Positions 2,399 to 10,834 are shown, numbered from the stretch's first letter. The stretch is 12,846 nucleotides of DNA from Thermoproteota archaeon (GCA_037917675.1 JAVCBW010000059.1:1-12846), one strand, 5' to 3'. Notes: generated by a model not told the origin, from the letters alone. Translations and numbers: made by a program.

Positions 2399-2660
2399 GC
2401 CTCAGCTCTTTCAGCTAGCTTCTCCGCTAGGAGCTTGGCTACCATTTTTAACCTCTTTTAAGAGGAGAGAGCAGGCTTCCTCGTCTATTGCCTCCACAGT
2501 TTAAAGCAGAGTAAATGTCCTCAACTTCCTGTACGTGGTACTATCATGTCGTATGCCTCACATATGAGCGAGGTTGGTGCTTTGACTTTTGAGAAATGGT
2601 TTTAGTAGGTTTATGTTGTCTGGGTGGCATGGTGGTGCTATAGCAACTACAGGCTCATGT
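2399..2660 (-). pseudogene. Possible decayed alpha/beta-hydrolase C-terminal remnant
   Basis: Minus-strand frameshifted fragments read PVVAIAPPCH, then KVKAPTSLICEAYDMIVP (about 2589-2536). This resembles the hydrolase 'ikaPtLlihGe.D.ivp' motif. No intact nucleophile motif is visible. Confidence 0.3.
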
Positions 2661-2882
2661 GAGACATGTTTACAACATAGGATAGCTCTGGTGAACCCCT
2701 GAGGAACTGGGTGATATAAGAGTTGTAGCTATGATAAATGGGAGAAGAGATGTCTATATGATGTATGTGTTATGCTATTTAGCGTATTTGGTTGGCGAGT
2801 TTCAAATGTGGTGCTTTGTCTCTTGCTTAATCTGCGGCAACAGCTATTATTTATGCAGCTCTCACCTTTAGAAGTTTAGGTG

Positions 2883-3704
2883 CTATGCTTGATGCAGGCT
2901 GATTTCCCTTTGCTTGTTCATTTTTAATTTCTTATATCTAGATTTTGCTGCTGAGACTGCTTTTAGACATTTTACAGCTTCCGTTCTCAGGTCTAGCTTC
3001 ACGGTTTTGTGAAGAAATTTTATGAGGTATACTAGGCTTCTTGCACGTGCCTCTATCTCTTTCATTTCAGTCTTCATTTTCTCAAGGTCGTATTGTGGTT
3101 CGCAGCTTAGCTTGGAGGAAAGCCTCTTGGCTTTAAGTGTGACCTCCGAGCTTTCCTCGATCAGCCGCTGTCTAAGCCTTTTTACAACCTCTGCTTCAGT
3201 CCTATAGCTTTTTGCTACTAGCTTGGGGAAGCAGAGGGCTCTCCCTCCCATTAGCCTAACTAGTCTTGAGAGTTCAGTTGGGCTTACAACTTTCCCTTGA
3301 AACTCTAGGTACTTGGAATCTCTTACTTGTGGGAAGGCATATACGTTATTGCTGATCTTTATGCAGGGTGATTTTCTGAGAGCGCGGCTTACTGCCTTCC
3401 TAGCTTTTGCAGAGTTCTGGAGCCCCTTGTAGACTATGATGACTAGGCTACCAACGCTGGTTTCGCTAGGATCTTCAGCTATTTTCCACTGCTTTATGTC
3501 GCGGGACCTCTTGAAGAGGAAGTATTCTAAGCCCTCTACAGTGAGGAGTACCTGCTTTAAGCTAGACTTAGGTATGCTCCAAAAAGCTTTACTTATCATT
3601 GTACAGCCTAAGCTCTCCAGCTTCCTATGAAGGAGGGGGGGGATGTTGCTTGTAAAAGCTATGTAGTAGTGTTTTTTGAGGCTTGCTTCGCTGCTTGACT
3701 CCAT
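2883..3704 (-). CDS. Basic hypothetical protein with two tandem ferredoxin-like (Cas2/PaaX-central/ChrB-N-like) domains and a helical C-terminus
   Basis: Internal repeat: YYIAF..LHRKLESLGCTMISKAFWSIP versus VIIVY..ARKAVSRALRKSPCIKISNNVYAFP...LVRLMGGRAL. The pattern matches ChrB-N/PaaX 'hhhhY...R..hhR.L...G...h..svy.hP'. It starts 25 nt after the RtcB-like stop. Confidence 0.6.
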   Translation of the reverse strand: MESSSEASLKKHYYIAFTSNIPPLLHRKLESLGCTMISKAFWSIPKSSLKQVLLTVEGLEYFLFKRSRDIKQWKIAEDPSETSVGSLVIIVYKGLQNSAKARKAVSRALRKSPCIKISNNVYAFPQVRDSKYLEFQGKVVSPTELSRLVRLMGGRALCFPKLVAKSYRTEAEVVKRLRQRLIEESSEVTLKAKRLSSKLSCEPQYDLEKMKTEMKEIEARARSLVYLIKFLHKTVKLDLRTEAVKCLKAVSAAKSRYKKLKMNKQREISLHQA

Positions 3705-3729
3705 TGTAGAACCTGCTTTTTGTGGTAGG

Positions 3730-4938
3730 CTAGGCTTTTAAAACATATACTGGGATTAGGCGTGCTATTATCTTAGCCATCCCAAGCTCTATTGTCTTAA
3801 CAAGAACCTCTCTGCCTCTGTATGTAAATTCTAGGCCGTCTACATCAGAGACAATCTTCAACCCTATTCCATTGCTCATTTCTATGACAAAAAACCTGCT
3901 GGATCCAGTTTCTATCACGTCGATTACGCTAAGCATGTCTGGGAACGTATAGCCTCCGCCATGTGGTAGTATGTTTGCATTCTCGAGTCTATGGAGGACA
4001 CCTAGCCTCTCAGCTCTCTTAGCAAAGCCTAGGTTCTCGAGAGCATCAGCTGTGAAGTTCGGCTTTCCTGAAAGTAAGTATGCTGGTAGGTCTCCTCTCA
4101 GAGCTATTGGGTAGATCTCCCCGCTTTTCTGAGGGTTGATGTGGTGGCAGCCTAGGCAGGCTTCGTTGTAGTTTACTAAGCCTTGATGCGTCACATTCGC
4201 TAGCTCCTTGTAGCTCCCGAAGATTCCTCTTGCTATAAGGCTCCTCTTCCTTTTGGCAAAGCTTTCAGCATACCTGTAGTGTTCGTAGTATTCTTTCGCG
4301 TCATTTTCCGTTAGAACATATGAGGGGCCGAAGGGTGTCTCTACTCTATCAGCCATGTCTCTCAGAGACCTGCTGCTGTGCACGTAGAGACCTGGACCCT
4401 TCTCGTTCTCTTTCTTAAGCTCTGGAGCGGAGCTGTGGATTATAAAGGCATAGTTTGGAAGCTCCACATCAGCTGCTTTAACTACTCTATACACGTTTAT
4501 GAAGTGGTTACCCTTATCGAAATCCCATTGCAGCCTTATGTTGTCTAGTACTTTCTCATCCTCTTTTATGCTTGCTAAAGCATCAATAAGCTCAGATGGC
4601 TTAGGGAAGTCGTCTAAGCCTCCAACGAGGAGGCCGCAAGCATTTGGCATGACATCTAGTATAATGACCTTCTCCTCACCTTCTCCCCATGAAATCTTAC
4701 CTCCATATCCTACTCCAAAGTTCCACCTAACCCTGTTTCTCGTGATAGTTTCATCAGGCGTTGATATGAATGTAGCATTTGAGGGAATTCCATACTTCTC
4801 TTGAACATAGTGGAACTTTGCTAGCCCATAGCTCATGTTCCACCTACAAAGGCTGGAGGCAGCATCACCGACTCCTGTTGAGAATATGTGTAATTTAGCC
4901 TTATCGAGCGCCTGCTTCCGGCTCAATTTCCCTCCCAT
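3730..4938 (-). CDS. Divergent RtcB-superfamily (GTP/Mn-dependent 3'-phosphate RNA ligase-like) protein; start possibly TTG at 4926
   Basis: RtcB motifs occur in the right order: PD62, C101G, GN144H145F, IIH168S, Y..AESFAKRKR (for A..NR), TH251Q, YLLSG, PH326GGG, TYRG, and C-terminal ARLIPVYVLK401A (cf. ARLRP..V.KG). Confidence 0.8.
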   Translation of the reverse strand: MGGKLSRKQALDKAKLHIFSTGVGDAASSLCRWNMSYGLAKFHYVQEKYGIPSNATFISTPDETITRNRVRWNFGVGYGGKISWGEGEEKVIILDVMPNACGLLVGGLDDFPKPSELIDALASIKEDEKVLDNIRLQWDFDKGNHFINVYRVVKAADVELPNYAFIIHSSAPELKKENEKGPGLYVHSSRSLRDMADRVETPFGPSYVLTENDAKEYYEHYRYAESFAKRKRSLIARGIFGSYKELANVTHQGLVNYNEACLGCHHINPQKSGEIYPIALRGDLPAYLLSGKPNFTADALENLGFAKRAERLGVLHRLENANILPHGGGYTFPDMLSVIDVIETGSSRFFVIEMSNGIGLKIVSDVDGLEFTYRGREVLVKTIELGMAKIIARLIPVYVLKA

Positions 4939-4949
4939 GAAAGCTTGGC

Positions 4950-4960
4950 TAAAAAGAAAA
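4950..4960 (-). promoter_or_regulatory. T-tract acting as putative TATA box for the RtcB-like gene and/or oligo-U terminator of the upstream peptide
   Basis: Minus strand reads TTTTCTTTTTA. The TTTTTA part ends 23 nt before the in-frame TTG at 4926. Confidence 0.4.
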
Positions 4961-5018
4961 GTGAGGTCGGCTTCCTGATCACAGAAGTACTCCCCCTATC
5001 CCTTACTGGCGGTCAAAG

Positions 5019-5087
5019 CTACTTTTCCTTCTTTTTCCCTTTTCTCCTCTCCCTCTTCTTCTTTTCCTTTTTCTTCTCCTCAGCCAT
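5019..5087 (-). CDS. 22-aa Lys/Arg/Glu-rich small peptide MAEEKKKEKKKRERRKGKKKEK
   Basis: ATG at 5087 has GGAGAGGT (SD-like) about 6 nt upstream, a TTTTTATC box at 5144-5137, and TAG at 5021-5019. It is below the ORF-track size cutoff. Confidence 0.5.
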   Translation of the reverse strand: MAEEKKKEKKKRERRKGKKKEK

Positions 5088-5136
5088 GATATTACCTCTC
5101 CTCCTTCCTCAGGGAGGAGGATGGAGCTGAGACATT

Positions 5137-5144
5137 GATAAAAA
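5137..5144 (-). promoter_or_regulatory. Putative TATA box for the small peptide / RtcB-like unit
   Basis: TTTTTATC on the minus strand lies about 50 nt upstream of the SD-led ATG 5087. Confidence 0.4.
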
Positions 5145-5536
5145 GATTACTTAGCTTAGATTTTCGTCTACTCTGCTCTTATTGCGCACCAATATGGCTT
5201 TTTCAGGAGCTTTCTGTACTCTATTAAATTTTCCAGCCTATATGCTTGAATCGCCTTTCTTAGAGCGCTCCTATACTTCCTTCAAGAAGACATCTAGCCC
5301 TGCATGGTAGTCACAAACTTTCAAGACTCTAGTGATCCATATGCTCCCTGAGGATAGTCCAGATGAGCCTATGCCTCCTCTAGGTAGTCTAACGCTTTAG
5401 TTTGGAGCCAAGACATCCAAAGCTTTTTATTAAGCTTGGTGCTCCACTGGGCTCTGTGAAGAGGATTCCTCTGGTTCCTCTTGTTGACCTGCTTACTTGA
5501 AGCCGCATACAGCTAGAAATAGCAGATATACTTTCA

Positions 5537-5753
5537 CTACCCTGATTCTTCAAGCTCGCCACGCTCGACCTTTCTCATGTTTTCAAGGGCATACTCAAGT
5601 GTCTCTCTCACGGTTTCCACAGGTATCTTGAGTTCTCAGCTGCTCTTGGTAGCTCCATCAGCTGGTGGCTCCAGGATGCCATTTTACACTGACACACGCT
5701 CCCTTTGACAGCCTACCACATTTCTAGATGCTATCCCCTTTGATGTCTATCAC
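5537..5753 (-). pseudogene. DUF433-family antitoxin remnant
   Basis: Minus strand reads VIDIKG..*KCGRLSKGACVSV, then after a frameshift ILEPPADGATKSS*ELKIPVETVRETLEYALENMRK. This matches DUF433 'cgGkPvIkGtRipV..ILe.la.G.t.eei..el.l..e.vreAleYA' with two stops and one frameshift. Confidence 0.6.
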
Positions 5754-6242
5754 ATTCTGCTAGCTCATATGCTAGCAAGCATAATGTGTGTCTAGCTTCT
5801 GGGAAGTTTGAGGGAGGGCCATGGCTTACTCCATACCATAAACTGGATCACTTAGCTGAGCATAAAAAGAGGTGTGAGGTTCCAGTTCTTATAACAGGAG
5901 TAGGTAAGATATGTTGAAGGGATGCTGAGAGTAGAGGAGCCAGCAAGAGGCAAGTATGCTGGCGGTAAACTAGTGGATGCTTTGTCAAAGAAAGCAAGTA
6001 GGTGTGATATTCACGCATGAGCTAAAGGAAATGGTAGCAGGTTCTAAATGGTAAGAAGCAGAGAAATCACGTGCTGGATGGAATGCGCCTCATAGCTGGC
6101 GAGCTTCAAGCCAGCCTACTGGCATCAGGCTTCCTAATGAGCTGAGCTTAGGATGCTGTCTCAGTCATGTTTAGGTCTGCTATATGTCGGTGTGAGCTCA
6201 AAGCTTATTAGCTACCTAGCCTCTAGTCTGGTGGTGGAGCTA

Positions 6243-6914
6243 TTGGCGTTAACAGCAGAGCTTTATGAGCTTATAGTTAAGGTTGTAGAGGAGAAGATAA
6301 AGGATCTAAGAGTTCAGAGAGAGGAGTTTGAAAGCCTGACGAAAGCGATCAGTAAGCTAGCAGAGGCACAAGGGAAAACCGAGGAGAGAGTCGGGGAGCT
6401 TGCTGAGGCTCAGAAGAAGACTGAGGAGAGGGTCAGGGAGCTAGCTAAGAGGGTTGAGGAGCTTGCTGAGGCTCAGAAGAAGACTGAGGAGAGGGTCAGG
6501 GAGCTAGCTGAGGCTATTGATGCTCTTAGGGTTGAGGTTGGTAGGCTCTCTGAGGTGGTTGGCTTTGGGCTGGAGGATGTTGCTAGAGTTATGCTGCCAG
6601 GCTGGCTTTATAGGCATCTTGGTATTGAGGTGGAGCTTGAGAGGAGGTTTGTTGAAGTAGATGGTATGGGGGTAGAAGTTAACTTGTATGGTGAGGGGGT
6701 GAGAGAGGGTAGAAGAGTGATTGTGGTGGGGGAGTGTAAGTCTAGGATATATGGTGGGGATGTGGAGAGCTTTTATAGGAGGGTGTATAGGCCGATAGCT
6801 GAGAGGACTAAGGTGGAGGTTGTGGGGGTCTTGTTTGGCTACCTGATACATCCGACAGCACAGCAGGCAGCTAGGAAGCTGGGGCTATATACGGTGGCAT
6901 CGTACATGAGGTAG
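6243..6914 (+). CDS. Archaeal coiled-coil protein with C-terminal PD-(D/E)XK restriction-endonuclease-like domain (DUF3782-like family)
   Basis: Probable TTG start at 6243 (MALTAELYELIVKVVEEK) with GGTGG/GGAG SD and TTATTA at 6205-6210. It has LAEAQKKTEER repeats, VGFGLED, and EVNLYG...VVGECKSRI. Confidence 0.8.
   Translation: MALTAELYELIVKVVEEKIKDLRVQREEFESLTKAISKLAEAQGKTEERVGELAEAQKKTEERVRELAKRVEELAEAQKKTEERVRELAEAIDALRVEVGRLSEVVGFGLEDVARVMLPGWLYRHLGIEVELERRFVEVDGMGVEVNLYGEGVREGRRVIVVGECKSRIYGGDVESFYRRVYRPIAERTKVEVVGVLFGYLIHPTAQQAARKLGLYTVASYMR
6395..6509 (+). repeat. Perfect 52-bp direct repeat (6395-6446, 6458-6509), 63-bp period, in the coiled-coil region
   Basis: GGAGCTTGCTGAGGCTCAGAAGAAGACTGAGGAGAGGGTCAGGGAGCTAGCT occurs twice. 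A diverged third protein unit (KLAEAQGKTEERV) precedes it. Confidence 0.95.
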
Positions 6915-6916
6915 CC

Positions 6917-7299
6917 GGTGTGTCCTATAAGACTGTAGAGGAGTATGTTGAGGTGCTTAGGAGGCTCCTCCTACTGGAGTAGCATACCACAGGGGGGAGA
7001 GGGTATCCTGGAGGAAGGAGAAGAAGTTCTTCTTCCTAGACCCTTTCATAGCGAATACTCTTGTAGAGTGGACAGGTGGAGAGTACCTGGAGAGCTCGAT
7101 ATACGAGTGGGTAGTCCAAGCTCACCTGTATAGGAAGTAGGAGAGTATACTACTATAGGGATAGCTATGAGATAGACTGCATGCTGGAGGGCTCAGGATA
7201 GAGGTGAAGGCAGGGAAGCCTCATAGGAGATACCCAAAGAACACGATCATGCTTGGGAAAGAGGACATACCTCTCTTCCTATGTGCGCTAAGCGTGTAG
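6917..7299 (+). pseudogene. 3' remnant of an archaeal AAA+ ATPase with wHTH and DUF4143 (PD-(D/E)XK-like) C-terminal domain
   Basis: Frameshifted pieces read GVSYKTVEEYVEVLRRL / RVSWRKEKKFFFLDPFIA / IYEWVVQAHLYRK* / YYRDSYEIDC / GGLRIEVKAGKPHRRYPK...EDIPLFL, ending in TAG at 7297-7299. Confidence 0.8.
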
Positions 7300-7492: not shown

Positions 7493-7792
7493 ATGCTCAT
7501 ATTAGACTTGACCTCAGAGTGGGGTATTAGCCTGGAGCTGCTGGCTGAGAAGCTTAAAGCTAGGCTTAGAGGCAAGCTGGCTTATATAGCTGCCTCACCG
7601 AGCCCAGATACCTTGGCTTATGATAGCAATGTGCTTGTGGTCTTGAAGGATCTTTCACCAGGTGATGTGAGAGCTGTCATGGAGGCTAAGAGGGAGGTTG
7701 AGGCTGAGCTAGGTGAGAGAGTTCTGATAAGCCCCCTGGTAACTGAGCTAGGAGACAAGCTAGCTGAAAGGTTCCCAGGTAGATGGGTTTGA
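7493..7792 (+). CDS. Minimal nucleotidyltransferase (MNT)-fold protein, atypical; putative antitoxin
   Basis: About 100 aa, overlaps the HEPN gene. LAEKLKARLRGKL...YDSNVLVVL...ISPLV topology matches MNT, but the GS and DxD motifs are not canonical. TTTTAA box at 7457-7462. Confidence 0.65.
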   Translation: MLILDLTSEWGISLELLAEKLKARLRGKLAYIAASPSPDTLAYDSNVLVVLKDLSPGDVRAVMEAKREVEAELGERVLISPLVTELGDKLAERFPGRWV

Positions 7793-8127
7793 GCATGGAG
7801 AAGGCCAGGTCGCTGCTGAGGGAGGCTGAGCTAGACCTCAAGGCTAGATGCTACAATAAGGCTGCTAGCGCAGCCTACTTCGCAGCTAGGATGGCAGCTG
7901 ACTGCCTCCTAGAGGCTAGAAGGCTACATGTACCTAGGAGAGATGACAAGCTAGCGAACCTGATAGAGCACCTAGGCTTAAGAGAGGCAGCAAGCCTACT
8001 GAGAGAGCTCTACAACACTAGGAAGAGGGCAGACTACTCCTCTCTAAAGGTGGCTGGAGAGGAAGCTGCTGAGGCAGTAGAGAAGGCTAAGAGGGCAATA
8101 GAGCTGCTGAGAGAGCTCAGGCCATGA
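7783..8127 (+). CDS. HEPN-domain protein (UPF0332-like), partner of the MNT
   Basis: EKARSLLREAELDL...YNKAASAAYFAA...LYNTRKRADY...EEAAEAVEKAKRAI matches the family; the gene overlaps the MNT stop. Confidence 0.85.
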   Translation: MGLSMEKARSLLREAELDLKARCYNKAASAAYFAARMAADCLLEARRLHVPRRDDKLANLIEHLGLREAASLLRELYNTRKRADYSSLKVAGEEAAEAVEKAKRAIELLRELRP

Positions 8128-8225
8128 AGAGCTCTAGAAGCCACATGCAGCCTGCGAGGTAGGGTGCTTAGAGAGGAGGCTAGGTGGCTGCTGTGATGCT
8201 GAGCTTTAGGCTGCTCTCTAGGCAC

Positions 8226-9323
8226 CTACCTGCTACAGTGTATTCTGATTGCTTTCTCAAGGTGGTGTGCTAGATCCCTTACCTGATCTAGGGTTATAGC
8301 TCCCATTAAGCCTACTCTCACAGCTTTCTCTCTCAGCTCTCCCATCCCAGATGCTATCAGATACCCTGCCTTCTTGACTTCCTCTATGACTTCCCTTGCT
8401 CTCGGAGCTTTAAGCTGTATTGCTGCTACTGTAGCTGACTGGTATCCTGGCGGTGGGATCGGCTTAGCCTCAGCTCTAGCTGCAGCCTCATAGACTTCTC
8501 TAGCCTTCTCCAGCTGAGACCTCCACCTGGCTTCTACACCCTCTCCTAGGAGGATCTCCAGAGCCTCTCTGAGAGCATATAGGAGTGTTACTGGCGGAGT
8601 GAAAGGCGTCTCACTTCTCCTAGAGTACTCTACTGAGAGCTTTAGGTCTAAGGATGGTGGCGGGCTTCTCCTCCTCTCCTGGAGCTTCTCTAGAGCCCTC
8701 TCCCCTAGGTAGACGAATGATATGCCTGGTGGAGCTGCAATGCACTTGTGTGAAGCTGAGGCTACAGCATCTAGCATCCAGCTATCTGCCTTCAGAGGCT
8801 CTCCTCCTAGCCCTGAGACTGAGTCTACTAGGACTAGGGCTCCAGCTTCCCTTGCCCTGGCAGCTATCTGCTTGAGGTTCCTAGCTGCATAGCCTGTGCT
8901 CGTCTCGTTGTGGACTGCTAGGATAGCAGATGGCGTGAGCTCCTCTAATGCCTCAGATACCTCGCTCACGTCGATCGGCTGGCCTTCAGGCCTCCTTAAG
9001 ACATGCACTTCAGCACCTCTTCTCCTAGCTGAGCTAGCTAGCCTGTCTCCGAACTCCCCATTTGAGAGAGCTAGCACCTTCTCGCCTGGCTCTAGTAGGC
9101 TCCAGACCATGGAGTCTACCGCTGTCGTGCCGCTCCCAGAGACTAGAGCTACAAGCTCATCTCCGACGTATACTTGCCTGAGCATGTCTACGACCTCCAT
9201 GTAGAGCTCTCTGAAGCTCTCTGACCTATGTGAGATCACTGGGCTCGCTTGAGCCTCAAGGACTCTTGGGTGGAGCTCAACTGGGCCAGGGGTCATCAGG
9301 ATCAGTCTAGCCACCTCTATCAC
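8226..9323 (-). CDS. Class V PLP-dependent aminotransferase (serine-pyruvate/alanine-glyoxylate family); likely phosphoserine aminotransferase role
   Basis: MTPGPV, ISHRS..F, GSGT.A, NGEFG.R, VHNETSTG, VDSVS, ASHKCIAAPPG (PLP Lys), TPFTPPV and VRVGLMG. It overlaps the serA-like stop. GTG 9314 is an alternative start. Confidence 0.9.
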   Translation of the reverse strand: MIEVARLILMTPGPVELHPRVLEAQASPVISHRSESFRELYMEVVDMLRQVYVGDELVALVSGSGTTAVDSMVWSLLEPGEKVLALSNGEFGDRLASSARRRGAEVHVLRRPEGQPIDVSEVSEALEELTPSAILAVHNETSTGYAARNLKQIAARAREAGALVLVDSVSGLGGEPLKADSWMLDAVASASHKCIAAPPGISFVYLGERALEKLQERRRSPPPSLDLKLSVEYSRRSETPFTPPVTLLYALREALEILLGEGVEARWRSQLEKAREVYEAAARAEAKPIPPPGYQSATVAAIQLKAPRAREVIEEVKKAGYLIASGMGELREKAVRVGLMGAITLDQVRDLAHHLEKAIRIHCSR

Positions 9324-10245
9324 CTAGCTCGTGTGCTATGGCCTCAGCTAGCTCAGCTGCAATCCTCCTCTTCGCCTCAGCTGTCTCAGCACCTATGTGT
9401 GGTGTAGCTATCACATGAGGGTGAGCTATGAGCTCCTTCTCCCAGCTCTCTCTAGGCGGCTCATGCTCGAGGACATCTATTGCTGCAGCAGCCAGCTTAC
9501 CTGAGTTTAAGGCTGATAGGAGAGCCCTCCCGTCTACTATAGCTCCTCTACTCGTGTTGATGAGGACTGCACCATCCCTCATAGACTCAAGCTCTCTCCA
9601 GCCTATCATCCTATAGGTTTCCTTGGTGAGTGGGACATGTAAGGTGACTGCATGGCTCTCTGACAGAAGGCTGCTGAAGCCTGAAGGCTCAGCTCCAGCC
9701 TCTCTAGCTTCAAATGCTATGTCCCTCCTATCATATGCTAGTACACGCATCCCTAGAGCTCTAGCTAGCTTGGCTACCCTCGAGCCTACCCTACCGAGCC
9801 CTATGACGCCCAGGGTTTTTCCAGCTAGCTCTCTGCCAGAATACATTCCTTTAGGCCACTTACCTAGCTTAACTAGCCTGTCGTATAGGGGTATCATCCT
9901 GAAGGCTGCTATCAGGAGGCCTATGGTGAGCTCTGCTACAGACTGAGATGCTCCAGCTGAGTAGATGACCTTGACTCCAAGCCTCCTAGCAGCCTCGAGA
10001 TCTATGTTATCTAAGCCTACTCCAGCTCTAGCCACGAGCTTAAGCCTGGTAGCTGCCTTAAGGAGCTCAAGGTCTACTCTAGTCCTGCTCCTGACGACAA
10101 GCACATCAAACCTGCTAGCCTCCTCAATGAGCTCCTCCCTGCTCACATTAGGCCTATACTCGACCTTGAAGCCTCTCTCAGAGAGCAGCTTCAGCAGGAG
10201 GCTGTCAACAGGGTCTGCTATGAGGACAGTGAGAGGCCCAAACAC
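9307..10245 (-). CDS. serA: D-3-phosphoglycerate dehydrogenase-like D-2-hydroxyacid dehydrogenase, short form without ACT domain
   Basis: VVRSRT, RAGVGLDNID, VAELTIGL, GLGRVG, LHVPLT, NTSRG, DVLEHEP and TPHIGAET. The start is moved to GTG 10245 because of a GGGGTG SD and a TTTAAAAA box at 10294-10287. Confidence 0.85.
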   Translation of the reverse strand: MFGPLTVLIADPVDSLLLKLLSERGFKVEYRPNVSREELIEEASRFDVLVVRSRTRVDLELLKAATRLKLVARAGVGLDNIDLEAARRLGVKVIYSAGASQSVAELTIGLLIAAFRMIPLYDRLVKLGKWPKGMYSGRELAGKTLGVIGLGRVGSRVAKLARALGMRVLAYDRRDIAFEAREAGAEPSGFSSLLSESHAVTLHVPLTKETYRMIGWRELESMRDGAVLINTSRGAIVDGRALLSALNSGKLAAAAIDVLEHEPPRESWEKELIAHPHVIATPHIGAETAEAKRRIAAELAEAIAHELGDRGG

Positions 10246-10834
10246 GACACCCCATACAAGACCCCCTACCCTCAAGACACCTACAGTTTTTAAAGCTACT
10301 AGAGGCAAGTGAGGAGCCTATAGCATAAGCTGATATCCTACAGTACCTTGATAAGACCATGGCTATAGCTGAAGCTGATGTGAAGCCTAGGACCATGCTG
10401 AAAGCCGAGGTCAGGAGCAGCTTTCAGGTAAGCAAGGCGATAGCCTGCTTGCAGTAGCTAGAGATGAGCTCTCAGCTAAGAAGCTCACCTAAGCTCCTGA
10501 TCCCCATGCGACATCTCTACAAGAAACATCTATGGAGCTAAATGCGGTATGAAAGAGCATAGGTGACGACATGTACAGGCCTCTGAAGATGTTGAGAAGC
10601 TAGATAAGCTAGCAGCTAAGAGAGCAAGAGCTACAAGCTGAAGCCCAGTAGTGACAGGAGCAGATAGTGGTAGAGCAGCCTCTTGTGTCCGCTAGCTCGG
10701 AGCCCTCACATCTATCACCATCGTAGTCTATTAAAGACTACATCAGCTATACTCCTAAGATACGAAGCATATGGCTAATGGAGCAGTCTTCTACAATCCA
10801 ACACTGATAAGGGGGTCACCTGATGGATGGAGGC

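Follow-up and report, generated by a model that had tools for sequence, protein, structure and literature searches.

The window studied here, a whole contig of 12,846 bp from a Thermoproteota archaeon (GCA_037917675.1, JAVCBW010000059.1:1-12846), encodes a protein of 402 amino acids (aa) from a branch of the RtcB superfamily that is strongly conserved and carries no annotation, and the gene lies in a real, recurrent but facultative cassette, seen again in sediment archaea. RtcB, the universal ligase for RNA ends with a 3′-phosphate, acts in tRNA splicing, in stress signalling and in the repair of RNA. An original prediction, made from the sequence of the window alone, had picked out three co-oriented minus-strand open reading frames (ORFs) with gaps of 80 and 25 nucleotides (nt), and the ORF listing reproduced these exactly: a micro-ORF of 22 codons (5019–5087), the RtcB-like gene (3730–4938) and a gene for a 273-aa Cas2-like protein (2883–3704). 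Both large ORFs are real genes, with 971 and 50 relatives, respectively. The labels that had been attached to them, ‘RtcB-like’ and ‘tandem Cas2/ChrB-like’, held up as well, the former on a VIA structural match (Z 22.2) and RtcB chains at Foldseek ranks 1–10, the latter on a two-domain model and faint ChrB_N and PaaX_M matches. For the package as a whole, in which the RtcB-like protein would carry out nucleotidyl transfer and end joining on RNA and the Cas2-like protein would be a non-catalytic accessory, we estimate a probability of about 0.5. The window is contig C7 of an archaeal genome of 1.78 Mb (62 contigs, 92.7% complete).

A divergent branch of the RtcB superfamily

Family models barely detect the 402-aa protein, a putative nucleotidyl-transferase/ligase and the candidate effector of the cassette. 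There was no Pfam match at E≤1, and the two NCBIfam matches, to TIGR03073 (12.8 bits, cut-off 271.8), which is the PrfH-linked RtcB model, and to NF007153 (12.5 bits, cut-off 407), were faint and below threshold. PDB sequence searches with the 402-aa and 273-aa proteins gave nothing useful, and a profile of the RtcB-like family matched the RtcB chains of the PDB at E 0.49–0.53. Relatives were abundant: 971 at E≤1e-3 among 6452 candidates, the best 120 of which share 48–64% full-length identity with the window protein, are called ‘hypothetical protein’ where they are named at all, and carry a Pfam domain in no case. They come from archaea (Bathyarchaeia, Odin-, Loki- and Thor-type Asgard lineages, Methanocellales, Nano- and Woesearchaeota) and from bacteria (Spirochaetota, Clostridia, Desulfobacterota, Atribacterota, Anaerolineae, Planctomycetota, Armatimonadota and Actinomycetota), and archaeal and bacterial members are at least 47% identical, an unusually tight conservation. 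A look-up in the Atlas returned unnamed clusters and one in which 13% of members carry PF01139.

It is structure that ties this family to RtcB. The AlphaFold2 model of the 402-aa protein, built from a 30-sequence alignment, was of high confidence (predicted local distance difference test score, pLDDT, 92.7; predicted template-modelling score, pTM, 0.92). In a Foldseek search of the PDB, RtcB chains took ranks 1–10 (E 1.9e-8 to 1.1e-7, probability 1.00, TM-score 0.41–0.49), and VIA aligned residues 9–402 of the model with 2epg_B, the Thermus RtcB homologue TTHA1785, over 301 residues (Z 22.2, root-mean-square deviation 3.4), the next entry having a Z of 5.5. Structural alignments to canonical RtcB showed 13–16% identity. 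As modelled, therefore, the RtcB fold extends across most of the protein.

The protein appears to retain the defining residues of RtcB chemistry. Six residues (C101, H145, H168, H251, H326 and K401) are invariant in 30/30 sequences of the alignment, and D95 is at least 90% conserved. Equivalences were sought by local hhalign comparison with five canonical RtcBs, numbered through the RtcB of the same genome aligned to 1uc2. N144–H145 of the GNHF(I) motif matched N202/H203 in GNHF(L) of RtcB, H168 of IIHS matched the H234 motif, H326 of PHGGGY matched H404 in HGAGR (with low alignment confidence), and K401 of the C-terminal LK matched K480 in VK; an alternative local alignment paired D95 and C101 with D95 and C98. 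The two-metal site of RtcB (Asp95, Cys98, His203, His234 and His329) thus has four aligned, putative counterparts (D95, C101, H145 and H168). The roles of the RtcB metal ligands, of His404 of PhRtcB, which accepts guanosine monophosphate (GMP), and of the guanine contacts are as given in passages of PMC8668186.

Genomic neighbourhood of the RtcB-like family

Neighbouring ORFs within 4 kb were clustered at 80 genome loci of the RtcB-like family. The commonest neighbour by far is an HD-domain protein of ~215 aa (PF01966, E 1e-13 to 1e-15), co-oriented with and abutting the RtcB-like gene at 35/80 loci, either upstream or downstream of it (among L012–L079, for example L022:6258-6890 and L026:4318-4980). 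The combination of an HD phosphohydrolase with an RtcB-fold enzyme has the look of a heal-and-seal pair not described before. Archease lies near the RtcB-like gene at 6/80 loci and canonical RtcB at 5/80. Genes for a SPOUT methyltransferase and for diphthamide synthesis recur at DPANN loci, the RtcB-like gene of Methanocellales lies divergently to one of Glu/Gln-tRNA synthetase type, and some bacterial contexts are metabolic, with neighbours resembling electron-transfer flavoprotein (ETF) and acyl-CoA dehydrogenase. At one locus (L055:6223-9177) the canonical RtcB beside the RtcB-like gene is 984 aa long and carries, past the active-site Cys region, a large insertion that is possibly an intein.

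As the original prediction had stated, no textbook RtcB partner is encoded in the window. Canonical RtcB (574 bits to PF01139) and archease are found together on another contig of the genome (C1), and candidates for the HD partner elsewhere in the genome amount to generic HD-domain matches (best 80.6 bits, over the HD core); the window gene is therefore an extra RtcB-superfamily enzyme without its usual partner.

A protein of two tandem Cas2-like domains

The Cas2-like protein (273 aa; 2883–3704, minus strand) matched ChrB_N (PF20229; E 0.0046, 17.3 bits, cut-off 23) and PaaX_M (PF20803; E 0.078, 13.5 bits, cut-off 24) below the Pfam cut-offs. A word-indexed search returned the protein itself alone, and 50 relatives at E≤1e-3, of ~250 aa and 20–33% identity, emerged from a full phmmer scan that covered 1.84 billion representatives; the protein belongs to a small, fast-evolving family. 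Its AlphaFold2 model (38-sequence alignment, pLDDT 95.1) consists of two beta-alpha-beta-beta-alpha-beta units of ferredoxin/Cas2-like type (~12–66 and 86–164) followed by a C-terminal three-helix bundle (167–272). Within the 38-member family, PaaX_M matches 9/38 sequences (best E 5.5e-8) and ChrB_N 4/38, and the N-domain of the family profile gave weak matches to three small Sulfolobus solfataricus chains (3exc_X, E 0.049; 2i8e_A, E 0.2; 2ivy_A, E 0.47), labelled hypothetical or uncharacterised, which we take to be Cas2 proteins. Foldseek matched the model to designed tandem ferredoxin folds (E 2e-4) and to the PaaX structure 8a39 (E 6e-3). The VIA matches of the whole model were confined to the helical bundle, which is spectrin-like (Z ~11) and dominated that search.

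Cas2 and VapD, the former known from CRISPR adaptation, are ribonucleases with a ferredoxin-like fold of this kind and a catalytic acidic residue after strand 1. No conserved Asp or Glu was found in the 38-sequence alignment, in which G85 is the sole invariant residue and R68 and Y122 are at least 90% conserved, making a nuclease site of the Cas2/VapD type unlikely. No helix-turn-helix family (winged helix) was matched in Pfam at E≤1, the model opening with a beta-strand of the first ferredoxin-like domain, and neither Pfam nor the model revealed a rhodanese-like domain. A predicted complex of the RtcB-like and Cas2-like proteins returned no answer (score 0.00), which counts neither for nor against binding. 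That the Cas2-like protein might regulate an adjacent MFS transporter in the manner of ChrB and ChrA was considered and rejected: the MFS genes beside it and beside the RtcB-like gene of L001 are not orthologous, and its neighbours vary. These include a GIY-YIG protein, a cytidylate-kinase-like protein and a protein of 177–207 aa without Pfam match; at 9 of 32 Cas2-like loci (L098–L116), all from one Bathyarchaeia lineage, the GIY-YIG gene lies upstream of the Cas2-like gene and the 177–207-aa protein, which has an HELLH motif, is encoded downstream of it.

Recurrence of the gene pair

The prediction had raised the question of whether homologues of the two genes neighbour each other in other genomes. 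They do, in company with K-rich micro-ORFs, at two of the 80 genome loci (L002 and L005) and at 18/53 metagenome loci, the recurrence being limited to one clade and to a joint presence in 2/401 Bathyarchaeia genomes. Across 81 loci (the 80 and the window) the Cas2-like profile matched five, full-length in the window, L002 and L005, where the gene lies ≤1.2 kb from the RtcB-like gene, and as a 75-aa single-domain form in L008 and L010, 19 nt upstream of the RtcB-like gene and beside an archease gene.

A quick maximum-likelihood tree of RtcB-like proteins placed the window protein in a clade of seven rows (SH-aLRT 83) with L001, L037, L009, L002, L003 and L005, no member of which has the HD partner; the proteins of L008 and L010 fall in another clade. 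The Cas2-like family is present somewhere in 5/7 genomes of the window's clade, as against 33/401 (8%) of sampled Bathyarchaeia. A scan of metagenome contigs added 53 further loci of this clade, and a Cas2-like gene precedes the RtcB-like gene in 18 of them, or in 15/25 of those with at least 2.2 kb of upstream flank. (A 5-sequence Cas2-like alignment run against metagenome contigs gave 9 pattern matches, none of them a relative.) The order in the Bathyarchaeia loci (L002-type) is Cas2-like gene, one or two K-rich micro-ORFs, a conserved 61-aa protein and RtcB-like gene, of which the window order (micro-ORF, RtcB-like, Cas2-like) is a circular permutation. The 25-nt spacer between the RtcB-like and Cas2-like genes of the window (3705–3729, minus strand) contains no T-run, a feature that would fit their co-transcription.

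The 61-aa protein is encoded directly upstream of the RtcB-like gene in L002 (4766–4948) and at least 25 further loci (L141–L192) and is absent from the window. It had no Pfam, PADLOC or PHROGs match, and in L005, L093 and L162 a piecewise match was obtained, apparently through frame-shifts. A Cas2-like pseudogene with 7 in-frame stops was also seen (G050:C11:170661-171407), 88 kb from the RtcB-like gene of that genome, which has an intact copy on another contig.

The micro-ORF and its purine tract

The micro-ORF (5019–5087, minus strand; MAEEKKKEKKKRERRKGKKKEK) would encode 22 residues rich in Lys, Glu and Arg, lies inside a purine-rich tract of 64 nt and is preceded by a GGAGG-type purine run. 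The 80-nt spacer between it and the RtcB-like gene (4939–5018, minus strand) holds a T-rich box, CTTTTCTTTTTAG, 12–24 nt ahead of the ATG, which might be a terminator, a TATA-like box or neither. By itself the ORF could be due to chance, as 2500–5600 holds 38 ORFs of ≥20 aa. Its setting is less ordinary. Allowing ≤2 mismatches, the 64-nt purine run is the longest among 80 regions upstream of RtcB-like genes (the window and 79 genome loci; median 17). In the 1.78-Mb genome there are five ATG micro-ORFs of 12–45 aa with K+R≥0.5, the window's among them, and two polypurine/polypyrimidine tracts of ≥50 nt, in one of which it sits. Among the 80 upstream regions a K/R/E-rich ORF was found in the window, L002 and L005 alone, and these are exactly the loci with a full-length Cas2-like gene.

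Micro-ORFs of the L002 type, for example MAGKGKKKQSRKKKKEGE, keep their ATG, their stop and an upstream GGAGG-type run (GGAGGTGAT-type) and vary by in-frame substitutions and changes of length; they include pyrimidine-bearing codons (in QSR, RAR and HAK), a second peptide form has a conserved EEW end, and a third K-rich micro-ORF often follows the RtcB-like gene. When 133 loci were surveyed, 39 K-rich micro-ORFs at a distance of up to 700 nt from the RtcB-like gene shared its strand and 3 lay on the opposite one, compared with 8 and 7 for those more than 1.5 kb away. Similarly, of 32 Bathyarchaeia loci picked by their Cas2-like gene, which include L002 and L005, both with an RtcB-like neighbour, 8 had a same-strand K-rich micro-ORF 240–1100 nt downstream, against 1 for three control positions together. 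Such counts are inflated by relatedness, but the bias in strand and position is an internal control. At two Pirellulales loci, too (L047:5972-6046 and L073:6380-6445), the RtcB-like gene is followed on its own strand, 180–250 nt downstream, by a basic micro-ORF of 21–24 aa with AKK repeats.

Probable acquisition by the window genome

Both genes were probably acquired, since they were found in no other examined genome of the class or phylum: in the class each family is present in 1/40 genomes, and in the phylum the Cas2-like family is present in 1/43, the window genome being the sole carrier in each case. A genome of the same genus (91% complete) shares window positions 8223–10299 at 85% DNA identity and has neither gene, and the nearest relatives of the RtcB-like protein are from Bathyarchaeia (62% identity to L001). 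These observations point to acquisition of the segment by this genome. A mis-binned contig was considered as another explanation and rejected for the right half of the window, given its 85% identity to the same-genus genome; the MFS gene at 1102–2397 has relatives of 40–50% identity in 19 of the class's 39 other genomes. The circular permutation of the gene order had prompted the idea of a mobile element with att repeats, which went unsupported, as flanking direct repeats, a tRNA and an integrase were all sought and not found.

Interpretation and alternatives

On the reading favoured here the 402-aa enzyme would be metal-dependent and would charge H326 of its active site with a nucleotide, the charged residue then serving to seal or modify a phosphate-bearing nucleic-acid end, probably of RNA. 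It would be a second, specialised enzyme in a genome that encodes its housekeeping RtcB and archease at another place, and would have been transferred horizontally from a Bathyarchaeia-like source, in one small cassette with the micro-ORF and the Cas2-like gene. The latter two would constitute a separable accessory pair, facultatively attached to this clade of ligases, with the Cas2-like protein, by analogy with PaaX and the N-terminal domain of ChrB, serving not as a nuclease but as a sensor, regulator or adaptor without catalytic activity. Established here are the fold, the invariant residues, the taxonomic spread and the repeated neighbourhood; the chemistry, an RNA substrate, co-transcription and any physical or regulatory link among the three parts are inferred.

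Several observations weigh against it. The RtcB models of Pfam and NCBIfam fail to reach their cut-offs for the 402-aa protein, and the hhalign comparisons with RtcB were weak (E 0.013–0.05, probability ≤3%), so that the residue equivalences rest on agreement of motifs and on the shared fold. H251 is invariant but is not aligned with His329 of RtcB, for which the alignments gave no clear counterpart, and the window protein has Asn at position 148 (GNHFIN), which aligns with the guanine-contacting Glu of RtcB, where at least 90% of 30 relatives have Asp (GNHFID). As to the pairing, the Cas2-like gene is missing in 10/25 loci of the L002-type lineage with enough flank. Of 401 Bathyarchaeia genomes sampled, 33 carry the Cas2-like family and 9 the RtcB-like family, 31/33 and 7/9, respectively, lacking the other; in the two with both, the genes are adjacent in one (G040) and not in the other (G050). 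Most positive loci come from one close lineage, the 61-aa neighbour being 87–100% identical in most, so that independent events are fewer than the counts suggest. The Cas2-like protein of the window belongs to a different subfamily from the L002-type ones (23% identity), which leaves common descent of the pair unproven, and on the RtcB-like tree the pairing does not extend beyond one clade, the family-wide partner being the HD-domain protein.

The main rival explanation, which we consider rather unlikely, is that the genes are neighbours without shared function, the Cas2-like gene and a K-rich micro-ORF forming a unit of their own, the RtcB-like gene standing alone, and their proximity reflecting lineage-specific synteny and one transferred fragment. 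This would account for the scarcity of genomes with both families (2/401, against 33 and 9 with either), for the downstream K-rich micro-ORFs at 8/32 loci picked by the Cas2-like gene, for the many loci at which the RtcB-like gene lies alone between divergent or convergent genes (L001, L003, L004, L006, L007 and L037), and for the varied surroundings of the Cas2-like gene (GIY-YIG, cytidylate-kinase-like and 177–207-aa proteins), but not so readily for adjacency in two gene orders and with two distant Cas2-like subfamilies, for a single-domain relative that abuts the RtcB-like gene in a second clade, for a Cas2-like presence in 5/7 genomes of the window's clade over a background of 8%, or for a gap in the window of just 25 nt without T-run. 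A separate doubt, compatible both with the cassette and with unlinked neighbours, concerns the micro-ORF, and it is a real possibility, if not the one we prefer, that this is not a gene: the purine tract would act in cis, as a leader or spacer (for example by providing a binding site or contributing to a ribosome-binding region), and the K/E/R reading a by-product of composition, purine-only codons giving nothing except Lys, Glu, Arg and Gly and the ORF lying wholly within the 64-nt run. Homology is of little help here, the ORF being too short and of too low complexity for such a test, and tblastn found no similarity between it and the other micro-ORFs. The L002-type forms argue against this doubt, with their retained ATG, stop and GGAGGTGAT-type run, in-frame changes, pyrimidine codons and EEW end, as does the strand-specific enrichment (39 versus 3).

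That the RtcB-fold enzyme has changed its substrate, and nucleotidylates or ligates something else, such as K-rich peptides or a small molecule, with no joining of RNA, seems distinctly unlikely. Its 13–16% identity to canonical RtcB in structural alignments, a conservation between archaea and bacteria (≥47%) that is unusually tight, the K-rich micro-ORFs flanking it on the same strand and the metabolic contexts of some bacterial members (ETF, acyl-CoA-dehydrogenase-like) would be in keeping with such a change; set against these are the apparent retention of the residues of RtcB chemistry, archease or canonical RtcB nearby at 5–6 of 80 loci, and HD-domain, SPOUT methyltransferase, diphthamide-synthesis and Glu-tRNA synthetase neighbours that lead towards RNA and translation, and nothing favours a peptide substrate. 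More speculative still, and highly improbable in our estimation, is a translation-coupled cassette for sensing and repairing RNA damage, moving as a unit between archaeal phyla, in which the K/E/R micro-ORFs would serve as stalling sensors, or as basic peptides with RNA-chaperone activity, to activate or help the ligase, and the Cas2-like protein would read the signal; the tRNAs for Lys, Glu and Arg are those that anticodon nucleases typically cut. The original prediction had also raised roles in nucleic-acid end repair or conflict response, with the Cas2-like protein supplying substrate recognition or regulation. These stay candidate roles, and the one in conflict is left without direct support because neither protein matches a defence or phage model (PADLOC-DB 2.0, 0 families at E≤0.01 for either; PHROGs, no phage-family match). 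In one specific form of the conflict role, a toxin-antidote or anti-virus pair whose Cas2-like member would be a VapD/Cas2-type RNase and whose RtcB-like member would reverse the cuts or repair an invader's damage, we regard it as extremely unlikely: the segment is variable within the genus and an HEPN-domain gene lies 3 kb away, while to the want of PADLOC and PHROGs matches must be added a Cas2-like family without a conserved acidic residue (G85 invariant, R68 and Y122 nearly so), a window without cas genes or CRISPR array, and a majority of Cas2-like carriers without the supposed RtcB-like ‘antidote’.

Relation to known systems

Canonical RtcB (PF01139; P. horikoshii PH1602, T. thermophilus TTHA1785, human RTCB) has the same overall fold as the 402-aa protein (Z 22.2), and four of its five metal ligands, its GMP-accepting histidine and its guanine-contacting Lys are aligned with the Cys/His/Asp residues, PHGGG histidine and C-terminal Lys of the latter. 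The window protein is ~80 residues shorter (402 versus 480 aa), only 13–16% identical and below the Pfam and NCBIfam thresholds. It occurs in addition to canonical RtcB, whose activator is archease; archease or canonical RtcB lies near the RtcB-like gene in few loci, and the partner is instead the HD-domain protein or, here, the Cas2-like protein and K-rich micro-ORFs. RtcB paralogues for the repair of damaged translation RNAs, accompanied by an accessory or regulatory gene, are described for the bacterial operons RtcB2-PrfH and RtcBA-RtcR in PMC9223846, PMC13166195 and PMC7790460. The likeness of the window to these lies in an RtcB paralogue with an accessory gene, but PrfH, RtcA and RtcR are absent from it and the accessory families differ.

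The 273-aa protein resembles PaaX (PF20803) and the N-terminal region of ChrB (PF20229) in having a ferredoxin/Cas2-like domain followed by a helical domain, and differs from them in its two tandem Cas2-like domains, in having no winged-helix or rhodanese-like domain, and in falling below both Pfam cut-offs. With Cas2 and VapD it shares, as modelled, the ferredoxin-like beta-alpha-beta-beta-alpha-beta domain, but it is far longer, has a helical bundle, lacks the conserved acidic residue and stands in no cas or CRISPR context.

In the literature, searched apart from subscription journals and supplements, no description of the RtcB-like family or of this combination of genes was found. A 2026 survey of archaeal rRNA circularisation identified RtcB by PF01139 only (PMC12918454). 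Surveys based on PF01139 overlook the RtcB-like family, which no Pfam or NCBIfam model recognises. It is a large and tightly conserved branch: its relatives, numbering at least 971, come from archaea (Bathyarchaeia, Asgard, DPANN and methanogen-related lineages) and from many bacterial phyla of anaerobes. Its partners are unlike all described partners of RtcB; most lineages have an HD-domain phosphohydrolase, and the clade of the window has a tandem Cas2-like protein and K-rich micro-ORFs. If active, the branch would represent a second class of enzyme that joins or modifies 3′-phosphate ends, with accessory factors open to test; if the micro-ORFs are translated, they would be a family of very small, basic archaeal proteins tied to RNA metabolism.

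Other features of the window

The DNA on either side of the cassette (2398–2882 and 5088–6152) had been called non-coding or decayed. Non-coding fits, as the flanks hold no ORF of ≥70 aa and have no translated similarity to the fetched loci or the rest of the genome, and as Rfam gave no family at gathering score for them or for the window; decay found no support. The single Rfam match of the flanks at E≤1 was to an animal microRNA family. No tRNA, cas gene or CRISPR array was detected in the window, and a scan with sigma-70 promoter and intrinsic terminator models, which are ill-suited to archaea, gave sites no commoner than in shuffled sequence.

The other genes of the window are ordinary: a methyltransferase fragment, two MFS transporters, two coiled-coil proteins, an aminotransferase and a 2-hydroxyacid dehydrogenase, together with an HEPN-domain gene preceded by a 99-aa ORF. 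These last two (7493–8127, plus strand), the 99-aa ORF overlapping the 114-aa HEPN-domain gene (PF05168, E 4.7e-8) by 10 nt, resemble a nucleotidyltransferase-HEPN pair, and related copies are present at two places in the same-genus genome. Both coiled-coil ORFs contain repeats, nine of 21 nt in register (524–783) within ORF 356–862 and others of 63 nt (6343–6510) within ORF 6153–6914, and the database matches of both are coiled-coil noise. Finally, 6966–7291 has no convincing ORF and its DNA matches two contigs of the same-genus genome at 74% and 67% identity; it is possibly a small repeated element, or else an RNA.

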